From Chthoniobacteraceae bacterium (GTDB taxonomy: Bacteria; Verrucomicrobiota; Verrucomicrobiia; Chthoniobacterales; Chthoniobacteraceae), in contig JBBCKI010000068.1 in assembly GCA_037190965.1 (NCBI GenBank), positions 42,739 to 106,738 of the forward strand: a stretch of DNA of 64,000 nt, written 5' to 3'. The notes beneath the pieces are model-generated. The model did not search any database. It saw only the letters and a list, made by a program, of their open reading frames with translations, and was not told the origin of the DNA. Positions within the stretch are counted from its first letter, which is position 1, and every line of letters begins with the position of its first letter. The position numbers and the translations under genes are program-made. Positions 10,494 to 15,964 of this stretch are shown here, piece after piece.

Positions 10494-11153
10494 TTACCCC
10501 CGTGCCGTTTTCATCGCCGCGACATACGCTGCTGCGGCGGTCGTCAATGCCTCCCAATCCCGACGCTCGAGGATCGCCTTGCTCACCAATCCGGAGCCCA
10601 CCCCCAGCGCGACGCAGCCTGCCTTGATGAAACTCCCGACCGTCTCCGGCATGACGCCGCCCGTCGGGATGATCGGGAGCTGCGGCATGGGGGCCAGCAG
10701 GTTTTTGATGTATTGCGGTCCCAGCGCGTCGGCGGGGAAGATTTTGATGAAGTCCGCCCCACACTCATAGGCCGCGAGCGCTTCGGTTGGTGTGTACGCC
10801 CCACAGATTACCGGCTTGCCGTAGCGGTTTCCCATTCGGATCACCTCGGGGCGAAGCACCGGTGTGACGATAAACTCCGCCCCCGCCAGTAACGCCCCAC
10901 GGCAGGTCTCGGCGTCGAGCACGCTTCCGACGCCGATCAGCACCCGCCCCGTGAATTCGCGGGCAATCCCGGAGATCGCCCCGAGCGCGTCGGGTGTTGT
11001 CATCGTCACCTCCATCGCGGTCACGCCGCCCTCAAGCAGCGCCTTGGCGGCGCAGACGAGGCAGTCCGGGCTATCGGCGCGCATGATCGCGACGATGCCG
11101 GGGTTTACAATACGGTTGAGGAGATCGAGCTTCATCATGGTTGCATCAAACAT
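10494..11153 (-). CDS. eda: KDPG/KHG aldolase
   Basis: EVT..TP, G.G.V, GA.TPTE, K.FPA and PTGGV motifs. Start may be 11138. Confidence 0.9.
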   Translation of the reverse strand: MFDATMMKLDLLNRIVNPGIVAIMRADSPDCLVCAAKALLEGGVTAMEVTMTTPDALGAISGIAREFTGRVLIGVGSVLDAETCRGALLAGAEFIVTPVLRPEVIRMGNRYGKPVICGAYTPTEALAAYECGADFIKIFPADALGPQYIKNLLAPMPQLPIIPTGGVMPETVGSFIKAGCVALGVGSGLVSKAILERRDWEALTTAAAAYVAAMKTARG

Positions 11154-12432
11154 TCCAGACGCTCTTGCCGCCCACGATCGTCCGCACCGCGCGGCCTTTC
11201 AGTTCCCAGCCGTGGAAGGGCGTGTTGCGGGAGCGGGAGAGCGACGCGTTTTTGTCGACGGTCCACTCCAGCCCCGGGTCGATGATGGTTACGTCGGCGA
11301 CGGCTCCAAGGGAAAGCGTGCCACGGTCGAGCTTGAGCAATTGCGCCGGGTTGATGGTGTAGAGTTCGATGAGCCGCGAGAGGGAAATCGCTTTGCGCTT
11401 GTGGACGAGGATGTCGAGGAAGAGCGCCAATTCCGTCTCCAACCCGAGAATCCCGAAGGGAGCCTGATCGAACTCGCGCTCCTTCTCGAAGTCGCAGTGC
11501 GGGGCGTGATCGCTGGCCAGAATCGTGATCGTGCCGTCGGCGATGCCTTCGATGAGTTCCTCCACGTCGCGCTCTGTCCGCAAGGGCGGATTCATTTTGA
11601 AATTGGTGTCGAACGAGCGGATCGACTCGTCGGTCAACGCGATGTGGTGAGGGCAGACTTCGCCCGTCAGCGGAATGCCTCGCGAGCGGGCCTCGCGCAG
11701 GATGCGGATGCTTCCGCCTGCGGAGAGGTGCTGGCAGTGGATCGGCGTGCCGCAGAGTTCGGCAAGCTGCGCGTTGCGCTGCACGATGATCTCTTCGCCC
11801 AGCGACGGCCAGCCGGGCAAGCCTAGCACGGTGCTCCAGTACCCTTCATGCATGACGCCTTTGCCGACGAGGTTGTAGTCCTGGCAGTGGTCCATCACCG
11901 GAAGGTCGAACATCTTCGCGTACTCCAGGGCGCGGCGCATCATCTCGTGGCTTTGAATGCAATGACCGTCGTCGGTCAGCGCAACGATCCCCGCCTTCGC
12001 CATGGCGCCAATGGGTGCAAGTTCCTCGCCCGCGATCCCTTTGGTAATCGCGCCGGTTGCATAGACATTGACGCACGACTCCGCCGTCGCCTTGTCTTTC
12101 ACCCAGCCCACGACACTGGCGTTGTCGATGGATGGGTTGGTGTTAGGCATGCAGACAACGCTGGTGAATCCGCCCGCCGCCGCCGCGCGCGCACCCGTGG
12201 CAATGGTCTCCTTGGCCGATTGCCCCGGCTCGCGCAGATGGACATGGATATCGATCAACCCTGGCGCGACGACGAGTCCCGTGCAGTCGATTTCATCATA
12301 GGGTGCACCTTCGGCGTCGAGGGCGGAACGTTCGACAATGCGGCCATTGAGAATGGCGAGATCGGCGATTTCGTCACGGCGATTGGCCGGGTCGATCACG
12401 CGGCCGTTGCGGAGGAGAGTGGGGTTGGTCAT
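11146..12432 (-). CDS. pyrC: Dihydroorotase
   Basis: DIHVHLREPG, MPNT, KMNPPLR, SDHAPH and NTPF motifs. Confidence 0.95.
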   Translation of the reverse strand: MTNPTLLRNGRVIDPANRRDEIADLAILNGRIVERSALDAEGAPYDEIDCTGLVVAPGLIDIHVHLREPGQSAKETIATGARAAAAGGFTSVVCMPNTNPSIDNASVVGWVKDKATAESCVNVYATGAITKGIAGEELAPIGAMAKAGIVALTDDGHCIQSHEMMRRALEYAKMFDLPVMDHCQDYNLVGKGVMHEGYWSTVLGLPGWPSLGEEIIVQRNAQLAELCGTPIHCQHLSAGGSIRILREARSRGIPLTGEVCPHHIALTDESIRSFDTNFKMNPPLRTERDVEELIEGIADGTITILASDHAPHCDFEKEREFDQAPFGILGLETELALFLDILVHKRKAISLSRLIELYTINPAQLLKLDRGTLSLGAVADVTIIDPGLEWTVDKNASLSRSRNTPFHGWELKGRAVRTIVGGKSVWNV

Positions 12433-13274
12433 GAGTCAGTAAGAGTTTTACGAAGGCGGAGGCGGATGACTAGCAATGTGAGGGCGGAAAAGAGGATGCC
12501 GGAGAGGAGTAGGAGGAAGGCTTCGAAGTTCAGGAGTTCGACCCGGGCAAAATGAATGAAAAAGGTCGGTTTGAGGATCGCGTAGAGTCGAACGATCGCG
12601 CCTGCAACTCCCACGAGGAGAGGGAATGGGGTCCACCAGGAATGATGGGAAGCGATCCATCGGAGGGGGAGCGCCGCGGTGCTCACCGTCAGGAACAGCA
12701 TCGTCATGAAACATCCCCAGAAAAGCGGGTTGGCTTCAATCCAGAGGAGTTTGAGGAGGGTGTTATTGGGATCGAGAAAATATTTTTCGACAAGAAATTC
12801 GGGGGCAAAAAGCGCCCTGCCAGAAAGCCCGCCAGCTAAAACGGATGGGCAAGAGAAGCTCAAGTTCCATCCGAAAAGTAGAAGCCAAAAGCGGCGCAGA
12901 AGTGCTGCGCTCCGGGACGCTGGCGCAAGGAGTTTCCCCTCGTTCCCAATCTCCAGATTGGGAACGCACTTGTCTGCGAATCTCTGATTCGTACGCCTCC
13001 GGGCTAAGAAACGCGCGAGCTTATCGTTGAGCCTTTGCAAAGGCTGCTTGTGAGAGGTGCGGTTTCGAAACTGGGGTTTCGGGGACACTGGCATTCCCAA
13101 TCTGGAGATTGGGAACGAGGAAAAGGCCCCCCTCAATAGGGCTGGCAGCGGGATCAATATTCCCAATCGGTTCACCAGAGTTTGGCGGGGAATGAACATA
13201 CAGCCGATGGGTGCAAGGATCATCAGATAACCGACCCATGTCACGGGGGCGGGTTGGAGGAGAAGAGATGACAT
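12429..13274 (-). CDS. Hypothetical multi-pass membrane protein carrying an in-frame repeat insertion
   Basis: Several hydrophobic segments; stop overlaps the pyrC ATG (ATGA); contains the 183-bp element at 12938-13120. Confidence 0.65.
   Translation of the reverse strand: MSSLLLQPAPVTWVGYLMILAPIGCMFIPRQTLVNRLGILIPLPALLRGAFSSFPISRLGMPVSPKPQFRNRTSHKQPLQRLNDKLARFLARRRTNQRFADKCVPNLEIGNEGKLLAPASRSAALLRRFWLLLFGWNLSFSCPSVLAGGLSGRALFAPEFLVEKYFLDPNNTLLKLLWIEANPLFWGCFMTMLFLTVSTAALPLRWIASHHSWWTPFPLLVGVAGAIVRLYAILKPTFFIHFARVELLNFEAFLLLLSGILFSALTLLVIRLRLRKTLTDS
12938..13120. repeat. REPIN-like doublet (family E, CTCGTTCCC type) inside a CDS
   Basis: 27-bp perfect inverted ends cctcgttcccaatctccagattgggaa, each containing a 10-bp hairpin; imperfect match extends to ~55 bp. 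Confidence 0.88.
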
Positions 13275-13284
13275 GCGAAAAGGG

Positions 13285-14295
13285 CTAGGGTGTTGGAAGT
13301 TCCTGTGCCGATGAAGATCGCTTTTTAAGTTTCTGGACACTGATCACGCTTTTCAGAGGGATCACTTTGAGTTCGAAGCTGTGGGGGGAAATGAAGTGGG
13401 GAGTGGCTCGAAAACGCCCTCGGATTTCGTTGGAGTCCACGCCGGTGATCATGCCATGCACGACTTGCCATTCCGCTTCGCGGGATGTGGAACCGTGTGT
13501 GATCCTTACTTCGGAACCGATAAGCGCATGAAAGGGAGCGAGGTTCGGAGATTTTGAATCGATTTCCGCGAGGACGATTGCTCCGTCCGCGATCCATGAG
13601 GATGAATCCACACTTCGATCGGCGTTCACAAAGATTGTCGATTCGGGCGAGTCCCCCGATTTGCCTGAGTGAAATGTGATTGTGAATTGTGGACGTCCGA
13701 ACCACGGGCTTTCCCGGGTTGCGATGCGGTCTGGAATGATCTGGGCCGCTGGGTGGTGGCTCAGGAGATAATCGGTGGCTATTTTTAAGGCTTCTTCTTT
13801 TAAGAGCGGAGGATTGGTGTCGGATTCCTCCGGAGTCATCTGGCAGATCGCGTAGCCCTCATCGAGAAGACCATCTCGCGCGCCTATGTATATCCCATCC
13901 TGGGGCGCAGGGTTCAGATAGCAGCGATAGCGTTTCCCCTTTTCAAGGACCACTCGGCAGTCCATGCCGGAACCTTTTGAGACTCGAACTTTTATCTCGG
14001 TGGGTGCTTTTCCTTTGATCGTCGCTAGCACTTTCAGGGTGGCGACGAAGCCGTCCCTGTCGCGGAAGCTTTCCCCTTTTGTTTCCAACGCAATCGCGTT
14101 GCAGATCACCTCAGCCTTCTCCGAAAGCTCATCTGAAGAAAAGTTGCTGGGAGTGTATGCCTCGACTCGAAGTGCGAAACAGATGAGAAGAATCGTCGAC
14201 GGAAGGTATGAAAAGCAGCGTAATAGCGCCGCACCCCAAGAGGCTTCGCGCTTAAGGAGCGCTTCATTTTCTTCACCTGCCATAAACGCCTTCAA
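13285..14295 (-). CDS. Hypothetical, probably exported protein
   Basis: 336-aa ORF filling the gap in the pyr operon; hydrophobic signal-like segment ending VEA. Alternative ATG at 14283. Confidence 0.65.
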   Translation of the reverse strand: MKAFMAGEENEALLKREASWGAALLRCFSYLPSTILLICFALRVEAYTPSNFSSDELSEKAEVICNAIALETKGESFRDRDGFVATLKVLATIKGKAPTEIKVRVSKGSGMDCRVVLEKGKRYRCYLNPAPQDGIYIGARDGLLDEGYAICQMTPEESDTNPPLLKEEALKIATDYLLSHHPAAQIIPDRIATRESPWFGRPQFTITFHSGKSGDSPESTIFVNADRSVDSSSWIADGAIVLAEIDSKSPNLAPFHALIGSEVRITHGSTSREAEWQVVHGMITGVDSNEIRGRFRATPHFISPHSFELKVIPLKSVISVQKLKKRSSSAQELPTP

Positions 14296-14987
14296 CTAAT
14301 CGCCCTCGCGATGACAAACGCCGCCGTGGCCGCAAGACCGCCGATCATCGTGGTCTGGAACGCGCTGCGCCACGGGTGTGTCCCGGTGAAACGCCCTTTG
14401 ACGTAGCCGAAGACAAACAGCGCGACGAGGGTGATGGCGGCTGAATAGGTAAGTGCCGTATGCACATCCTCCATCAGGATATAGGGAACGAGCGGGATGA
14501 TCCCGCCCACCATGTACGCCCCGGCGATGGCGGCGGCGCTTTTGAGCGCGCGGCGCGGGTCGGGTTCCTCAAGGCCGAGTTCGAAGCGCATCATGAAATC
14601 GACCCACTGCTGCGGCTTCGCCTCCAGTGCTTTGACGATCGGGGCGATCTCCTCTTCGCTTAAACCATAGCCGCGAAAGACGTCGGCGACTTCCTGCCTT
14701 TCGTCCTCGGTCTTGTCGATAATCTCCTGCTCTTCGCGTCGGCGCTCGCTGCGGTAATGCTCCGCATCGCTCCGCGCGGCGAGATACCCGCCCAAACCCA
14801 TCGCGATGGAACCGGCGGCGATCTCCGCAAAGCCCGCCGTGACGATCAGGCGCGATGCGGCAATCGCGCCGGTCAGCCCCGCCGCAAGCGCGAACGGGAC
14901 GGTCAATCCATCGGACATGCCGATAACGATGTCGCGCACCAGCGCGCCCGCCGTGAAATGCTTTTCGATGTGAGGCGTCGCGGGCAT
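14292..14987 (-). CDS. VIT1/CCC1 iron/manganese transporter
   Basis: RDIVIGMSDGL, AEIAAGSIAMGLGGYL and MMRFELGL motifs. Confidence 0.93.
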   Translation of the reverse strand: MPATPHIEKHFTAGALVRDIVIGMSDGLTVPFALAAGLTGAIAASRLIVTAGFAEIAAGSIAMGLGGYLAARSDAEHYRSERRREEQEIIDKTEDERQEVADVFRGYGLSEEEIAPIVKALEAKPQQWVDFMMRFELGLEEPDPRRALKSAAAIAGAYMVGGIIPLVPYILMEDVHTALTYSAAITLVALFVFGYVKGRFTGTHPWRSAFQTTMIGGLAATAAFVIARAIS

Positions 14988-14992
14988 GACGG

Positions 14993-15964
14993 TTACTCGC
15001 CCGCCTGCCCCCTCGCTCCATCGCACAGATACAGCGCGGCCATGCGGACGGCGAGGCCGTTGGTGACCTGGTCGAGAATCACGCTCCTGCCGCTGTCGGC
15101 GACGTTGCTGTCGATCTCGACGCCCCGGTTGATCGGTCCGGGGTGCATGATAAGCGCGTCAGGCTTGAGCCGTTCGGCGCGTTCCTTCGTCAGGCCGAAG
15201 AAGGCGGTGTATTCGCCGAGGCTCGGGAAATATTCCTTCCTCTGCCGTTCCATCTGGATGCGCAGGAGGTTGATGACGTCCACATCCTCAAGAACATCGT
15301 CGATGCGGTGCGTCACGGTGACGCCCATCTTCTCGAAGCAACGCGGAACGAGCGTGCTCGGGCCGACCAGCGTGACCTTTGCGCCCAGCTTGAGGAGCGC
15401 GTGGATGTTCGAGCGCGCGACGCGGGAGAATAGAATGTCGCCGACGATGGCGACGTGCAGCCCTTCAACGCGCCCCTTCTTCTCGCGAATGGTAAAAGTA
15501 TCGAGCAGCGCCTGGGTCGGATGCTCATGCGCGCCGTCGCCCGCGTTGATGACGCTAGCGCTGAGACGCTCCGCGAGGAACTTTGCCGCGCCCGCCGAGG
15601 AGTGGCGAAGCACGATGATGTCGGCGTGGAGCGCCTGCAGATTCAGCGCGGTGTCCTTGAGTGTCTCGCCCTTGGTAAGGCTGGAGGTGCTCGCGGAGAT
15701 GTTCACCACGTCGGCGCTCAAGCGAAACGCCGCCAGCTCGAAGGAGATGCGGGTGCGGGTGCTGGGCTCGACGAAAAAGTTGACGAGGGTTTTCCCTCGC
15801 AGCGACGGAACTTTCTTGATGTCGCGCGCGCCGACCTGCTTGAACGCGGCGGCGGTGTCGAGTAGGAACCTGATTTCCTCGGCGGAGAGATCCTCTAGGC
15901 CGACGAGATCCTTGCGAGACCACGGCGCGGCGACGGGAGATGGGGAGGGGGTCATGGGAATCAC
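14993..15964 (-). CDS. pyrB: Aspartate carbamoyltransferase catalytic subunit
   Basis: [27 protein letters not shown] and MHPGPINRG motifs. Confidence 0.97.

Follow-up and report, generated by a model that had tools for sequence, protein, structure and literature searches.

A REP doublet of a family spread through the Chthoniobacteraceae, likely inserted in frame in an orphan membrane-protein gene upstream of pyrC

The window analysed here is a stretch of 64,000 nucleotides (G000:C68:42739-106738) from a Chthoniobacteraceae bacterium whose genome, the source genome G000, comprises 4.2 Mb in 73 contigs. Within the window an open reading frame of 281 codons, ORF281, continues without a stop through a palindromic element. 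The locus raises the question of whether a mobile repeat has landed in frame inside a gene and become part of its product, or whether the frame is open by chance across an ordinary repeat between genes. The features of the locus are collected in Table 1.

Table 1. Features of the pyrB-pyrC region in the window and of the corresponding gap in a same-genus genome (G005)
Feature	Position	Strand	Description
pyrC (dihydroorotase)	11146..12432	-	directly downstream of the host ORF
Host ORF (ORF281), 281 codons	12429..13274	-	predicted multi-pass membrane protein, without homologues
C-terminal 144 codons from alternative TTG start	12429..12863	-	carries most of the coding signal
Decayed arm of second repeat family, 13 codons APASRSAALLRRF	12888..12926	+	in frame in the host ORF; 11 bp from the element
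Element, almost certainly a REP doublet (REPIN/TIR dimer)	12938..13120	.	183 bp including one outer variable base per side; invariant family ends 12939-13119
Left arm, about 56 bp	12938..12993	+	hairpin 1 at 12941-12966, hairpin 2 at 12977-12991
Spacer	12994..13064	.	differs from the common spacer of the 150-154-bp subfamily
Right arm, inverted	13065..13120	-	hairpin 2 at 13066-13081, hairpin 1 at 13094-13115
N-terminal 51 codons	13121..13274	-	hydrophobic; T at codon position 2; neutral hexamer score
ORF336, upstream ORF, 336 codons	13285..14295	-	without family match; within the pyrB/pyrC accessory insert
Decayed arm of second family in ORF336	14210-14264		N-terminal part; 20.7 bits, best of 300 shuffles 10.5
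VIT1-family gene	14292..15026	-	first gene of the accessory insert
Orphan membrane ORF of G005, 126 aa	L031:3570-3950		fills the pyrB-pyrC gap

The terminal inverted repeat of the element is perfect over 27 bp, and imperfect complementarity of the ends extends to 43 nt. Each arm is composed of two hairpins, and the arms are identical to one another at 42 of 56 positions. Folding of the element gives -99 kcal/mol (z = -9.2), a stability equalled by none of 200 shuffles, and the RNA of the coding strand is predicted to form a long stem (z = -6.5). The sequence-only reading from which this analysis started had described a palindrome of 183 bp with inverted arms inside an open coding sequence, and this much of it holds. 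The 61 residues encoded by the element include 13 K/R and 4 D/E.

A search of the source genome with a profile of the arm returned 210 matches in 77 loci, 54 of which are doublets, so that the repeat is a multicopy one, as a mobile element had been expected to be. Most doublets belong to a 150-154-bp subfamily with a shared spacer, whereas the spacer of the window copy is unique; some of the singlets are copies split by an IS. The stem of the first hairpin has two-sided, compensatory changes at five positions among 24 distinct rows, although three of these rows fit the pattern by chance. By the simple gene caller used here, 36 loci lie between convergent and 29 between tandem genes, none between divergent ones, 11 at contig ends and one in an overlap that is probably a start miscall, which makes the family predominantly extragenic. 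The repeat is present in 62 of 150 genomes of the bacterial family. The copies are dispersed and mostly doublets, with inverted palindromic units and a spacer that fold into a hairpin, and there is very little doubt that the element is a REP doublet (REPIN/TIR dimer), one copy of a repeat that extends through this bacterial family. It is not a canonical GTAG-type REP: the GT[AG]G foot of the hairpin is absent from both orientations of the listed arms. Rfam has no match to it, and the family was not found by sequence in the literature matches listed or in the supplements searched; figures and bioRxiv supplements may hold it.

Many copies in the source genome adjoin other repeats. A third, larger family (about 250-380 BLAST hits per flank) adjoins the copies at C1:32326, C1:60191, C20:144, C32:62507 and C66:53458. 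An IS1182-family element (NF033551, 390 bits), found at L111:257-1819 (G000:C34 about 112491-114173) and at many contig ends, terminates in the loop of the first hairpin of the repeat, 20 of 23 end matches following half an arm; two of the remaining matches are at contig starts and one is unrelated, and there are at least three end variants. One copy of this IS interrupts the arm upstream of the transposase gene described next.

The source genome contains four Y1 matches. One of them, a RAYT gene at G000:C5:33148-33675, scores 109.7 bits on NF047646 (cut-off 80), and the two others that were scanned fall just below the cut-off. A RAYT/TnpA-REP gene flanked by the arm had been predicted from the window, and the RAYT gene indeed lies, on a different contig, with an inverted arm on each side at distances of 9 and 17 bp; no arm hits occur near the other three Y1 matches. 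Relatives of this RAYT are 60-73% identical to it, and among 30 loci of the gene and its close relatives arms are found on both sides in 13 (that of G000 and 12 of the 29 others), on one side in 3 and on neither in 14. The gene is present in 44 of the 150 genomes of the bacterial family; the repeat is carried by 42 of these 44 and by 20 of the 106 RAYT-negative genomes, kin that do not count as independent. Because RAYT cleavage and movement are known from other systems, according to the sections considered of PMC3116915 and PMC8266576, we infer that this enzyme moves the element. The other three Y1/RAYT-like ORFs of the source genome (L001:969-2523, L002:892-1860), those with no repeat copies nearby, include two with long C-terminal extensions.

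Several described systems resemble the family, each as far as the available sections of the sources describe it. REPINs with their RAYT/TnpA-REP genes (Bertels and Rainey 2011, PMC3116915) have in common with it the inverted doublet with a spacer that folds into one long hairpin, the prevalence of doublets, the dispersed, extragenic location and a RAYT gene flanked by the same repeat; the arms here differ in their length, their two hairpins and the lack of a GTAG/GTGG foot. Also similar in arrangement are the TIRtrons and TIRYTs (Di Nocera et al. 2013, PMC3733652 section 16), in which a RAYT-type gene lies between long non-GTAG inverted repeats that occur as dimers genome-wide. Here too, long non-GTAG inverted repeats flank the tyrosine transposase and are repeated as dimers, and some of the published TIRs are 'double palindromic', as are arms with two hairpins. 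The GGGGWSAS motif of TIRs has one match in the right arm (13081-13088) and none in the left. The sections considered of that paper give no Chthoniobacteraceae example, and the comparison is one with its description rather than with listed TIR sequences. The unclassified REP beside the Y1 gene of Desulfatibacillum alkenivorans (ACL04004.1; Quentin et al. 2018, PMC6006769) has the same TTCCCA...GGGAA hairpin followed by CGAG, but its stem centre differs, a single hairpin is listed without a subclass, and it is the sole such row in the part of supplement 2 considered (row 4).

Repeats read in frame within genes are likewise on record. The available parts of PMC3733652 report intragenic GTAG-17/18/19 REPs of Opitutus terrae, a member of the same phylum, as in-frame singles and dimers inside ORFs; about 70 rows are given, many in well-known genes, others besides O. 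terrae are tabulated as well, and among the rows seen the stretches coded by O. terrae dimers reach about 50 residues. In-frame REP insertions are also noted in PMC6006769 (section 13) and repeat-ORF fusions are reviewed in PMC3184786, in the portions considered. The present case differs from that of O. terrae in that it concerns one copy in 77, in an orphan, a non-GTAG family and a longer, 61-codon insert. Rickettsia palindromic elements (RPE-1, Ogata et al. 2000, as presented in the parts considered of PMC3733652 and PMC3184786) are also palindromes of 100-200 bp read in frame in a gene; their hosts are often conserved genes of which empty orthologues exist, and expression was shown for some of the elements, whereas the family here is almost wholly extragenic and RAYT-linked and its sole candidate host has no orthologue. 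The analogy with these elements that had been drawn from the window does not extend to a family habit, since habitual in-frame insertion into conserved genes is not seen here.

About 87% of the source genome is coding by the simple gene caller, yet the window copy is the only candidate internal insertion among the 77 loci, which suggests that intragenic copies are purged or avoided. The count of in-frame intragenic copies, proposed earlier as a check, thus confirmed the abundance of the repeat but yielded this single candidate. Other open frames spanning copies in the source genome were rejected as shadow frames or 5' read-throughs. The in-frame insertion itself is likely; it is the sole such candidate in the genome and of a kind already published for Verrucomicrobia. 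Since the exceptional copy lies in a gene absent from relatives, tolerance is favoured over benefit.

The exact limits of the mobile unit bear on the reading frame. The invariant ends of the family span 181 bp, which is not a multiple of three, and the base next to the invariant end is C in 92, T in 20 and another base in 4 of 116 arms. When exactly 183 bases are removed in silico the host frame stays open, while removal of 181 bp leaves 77 codons before the first stop. Divisibility by three holds for 40 of the 121 boundary pairs nearby. The earlier statement that excision keeps the frame is therefore correct as an operation on the sequence but does not carry over to the unit marked by the family ends. 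Given these ends and the asymmetric REPIN excisions reported in the sections considered of PMC3116915, the 183-bp unit is an assumption, though a plausible one. Empty sites within the source genome amounted to one loose candidate (C51 vs C32), too diverged to fix the ends, and one locus of genome G036 compared with its genus had no alignable empty site. The ends of the 54 doublets carry no direct repeat by inspection, no clean empty site was found in which a target-site duplication could be seen, and the outer flanks of the arms are T-rich on the arm side. The repeated unit in G036 (L011:1508-1727) is about 219 bp long, in copies 90-97% identical, and extends about 40 bp past the second arm, which makes the mobile unit of that genome asymmetric. 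In the source genome, 10 of 120 arms have their end repeated as a short copy within 16 bp on the outside, against a background of about 1%; such copies are possibly footprints of earlier insertion or excision.

The element has a neighbour derived from another repeat. The adjacent 39-base stretch matches second-family arms of the source genome at 31 of 39 bases, the best of 300 shuffles reaching 25 and two of 500 random genome pieces reaching at least 31, and its hairpin is kept through compensatory and wobble changes. The profile of the second family does not detect the stretch at E<=10, and the claim rests on pairwise identity and shuffles. The decayed arm in ORF336 has the same orientation and reading frame as that in ORF281. 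The residues exposed by excision of the element had been regarded as a natural-looking helix; with APASRSAALLRRF itself derived from a repeat, this argument is removed. The presence of the second-family arm is compatible both with two hits on a permissive loop and with a cluster of repeats between genes.

The gene order on the minus strand is pyrR, pyrB, VIT1, ORF336, ORF281, pyrC, the first two being genes that we take from their sequence to be pyrR and pyrB. The TGA of the host ORF overlaps the ATG of pyrC by 4 nt, as had been pointed out. Four same-genus genomes have a pyrC match, and in three of them pyrB is next to pyrC; in the fourth, G005, a different orphan membrane ORF lies between them and overlaps the pyrC start likewise. 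VIT1, ORF336 and ORF281 therefore form an accessory insert, and the pyrB-pyrC junction has acquired accessory genes more than once. In relatives the position of the insert falls inside a pyrR-pyrB-pyrC run. A promoter and terminator scan gave no signal above chance.

The host ORF stands alone. With the flanks of the element also searched separately as queries, neither the whole ORF nor either flank found a homologue but itself among 5.8 billion proteins. A protein search with the C-terminal 168 aa had none at E<=1, and the insert region gave a blank against longer proteins, in a search that is itself weak evidence. HMMER over 1.84 billion representatives found no homologue, only four hits, which fall on repeat-derived stretches in clusters of one or two members; one candidate, P0005, was rejected as a tandem-repeat protein matched spuriously. 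The host flanks occur in none of 150 genomes of the family and none of 400 of the phylum, a search of 61 genomes matched the repeat but not the host ORF, and pattern scans of metagenomes, genomes and viral contigs found no host homologue. The ORF has no match in Pfam or NCBIfam, the best ESM Atlas values (0.82 and 0.79) are at chance level, and AlphaFold2 on the single sequence gives a mean pLDDT of 49.5. The G005 orphan is collinear with the C-terminal part of the host, not significantly (P about 0.13), and offers no family for a profile. In consequence there is no empty allele for comparison.

The interpretation thus depends on whether the two flanks belong to one gene. The N-terminal piece has 23 of its 43 T's at codon position 2 (P = 0.0016 against composition-matched open shuffles) and surpasses in hydrophobicity 99.6% of 5469 open 51-codon frames taken from intergenic DNA; its ATG lies 11 nt after the stop of ORF336. 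By hexamers it scores neutral: 29% of the open frames from intergenic DNA do as well, and 21% of low-GC gene starts do no better. In the C-terminal 144 codons T occurs 63 times at codon position 2 and 34 and 32 times at the others, none of 359 open shuffles is as hydrophobic, and the hexamer score is positive. The periodicity of both flanks falls in the same frame, and the other five frames have 5-14 stops. The coding score is concentrated in residues 161-281; residues 121-160 score negative by hexamers, and 131-160 are without periodicity (P = 0.27). Read-through across a copy was found for 4 of 29 downstream genes; the host has 74 open codons upstream, the other three 9-24 hydrophilic ones. 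We consider it fairly probable that this is a single gene interrupted in frame by the element, a gene that would be translated through it.

The explanation that we prefer, and hold to be somewhat better than an even bet as a whole, is that a REP doublet copied by a RAYT was inserted in frame by chance in an orphan gene and persists as a tolerated passenger. The doublet would be non-autonomous and most likely copied in trans by the HUH/Y1 tyrosine transposase encoded on contig C5, which would act on single-stranded hairpins without target duplication, preferring T-rich/A-rich sites in transcribed DNA. The family, its copy number, the covariation of its hairpins and the RAYT gene between arms are observed; movement by the enzyme, a single ancestral gene, translation and neutrality are the interpretive part. 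One copy would have landed in the accessory membrane-protein gene between pyrB and pyrC, after its first hydrophobic segment and beside the older repeat remnant, and would have added a basic, hydrophilic segment of 61 residues. That length and frame kept the ORF open may be put down to chance: 24 of the 54 doublets have a length that is a multiple of three, and 55 of 324 doublet-frame combinations (about 1 in 6) are both a multiple of three and open. The copy may have persisted because the host gene is dispensable, as the adjacency of pyrB and pyrC in three of four same-genus genomes and the other orphan in the fourth suggest, or because the site is permissive, and no selected new domain would be involved.

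A less probable alternative, although one to be taken seriously, is that the doublet and the second-family arm form an ordinary intergenic repeat cluster, that the true gene is the 144 codons from TTG 12863, and that the upstream frame is open by chance or belongs to a short gene or remnant joined to it on paper. The simple gene caller starts the gene at this TTG, downstream of both repeats, in accordance with the position of the coding score, and the two unrelated repeats are adjacent, as at many other loci; clusters of REPINs arise when a copy lands within or beside another one (sections considered of PMC3116915), and many 5' REPs in ORFs are annotation artefacts (available part of PMC3733652, section 15). 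The element is read through by chance in 3 of 28 other cases, and the collinearity of the G005 orphan, for what it is worth at its P value, is with the C-terminal part only. Against this, the upstream codons have the periodicity of a membrane protein in the same frame and begin with an ATG close behind the previous stop, no stop separates the two pieces, and TTG is an infrequent start (162 of the 3370 genes called by the same caller).

It is improbable that the insertion has been kept by selection, either because the basic segment has a role or because pyrC is protected from polarity when the 183-nt hairpin is translated. The overlap with the pyrC start, the position inside the pyrR-pyrB-pyrC run of relatives and the long stem in the coding-strand RNA are in its favour. 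Openness by chance at the frequency given above weakens it, as do the 28 other copies between tandem genes, which are mostly untranslated, the few with an open frame having 9-24 open codons upstream; the sequence-only reading, which had suggested that selection may keep the frame open against polarity, finds no support on this point. The arms moreover retain the DNA sequence and hairpins of their family with no discernible sign of adaptation at the protein level, and the case is a single genome, with no conservation. Lowest of all we place the possibilities that the element is a classical MITE mobilised by a DDE transposase or that the assembly produced it by collapsing repeats. Long terminal inverted repeats would suit a MITE, but no direct target duplication is seen by inspection at the ends of the 54 doublets, and RAYT genes lie between arms at 13 of 30 loci. 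As regards the assembly, one study offers two public DNA runs whose contigs include both junctions and portions of the element; they reach 26-30 letters into the element and break inside it, none spanning it, which an artefact would also produce. The spacer is unique, however, and the pieces, from the same strain, match it and both junctions without differences; no joint that skips the whole element was found in these two runs, among which the source itself may be represented.

A bolder reading, which we regard as unlikely, sees in the ORF a young membrane protein under reconstruction from mobile DNA. Two unrelated palindrome families would have supplied 74 of its 281 codons through in-frame insertions in the same loop, the product would be translated and inserted in the membrane, and translation through the hairpin would keep the coupled pyrC expressed. 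If true, this would show a protein in the course of growing by capturing one repeat after another, with the operon providing a reason to keep the frame; the process would be driven by a non-GTAG REP/RAYT family with double hairpins that was not found described by sequence in the literature searched. On the preferred reading of a tolerated insertion, translation through the element would add a further case of mobile palindromes donating protein sequence, 61 + 13 codons. The repeat family and its RAYT offer a tractable non-GTAG REP/RAYT pair for studying the choice of cleavage sites by the enzyme. Such repeats also create read-through ORFs, and an open frame with a length that is a multiple of three is weak evidence of exaptation. 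Open frames through copies into real downstream genes were seen at L014:1446-2633, L018:1509-3038, L008:1132-2250 and L118:155-1927 (G036, G021, G012 and G000), and frames of this kind are likely to give genes false N-terminal extensions when genomes are annotated.
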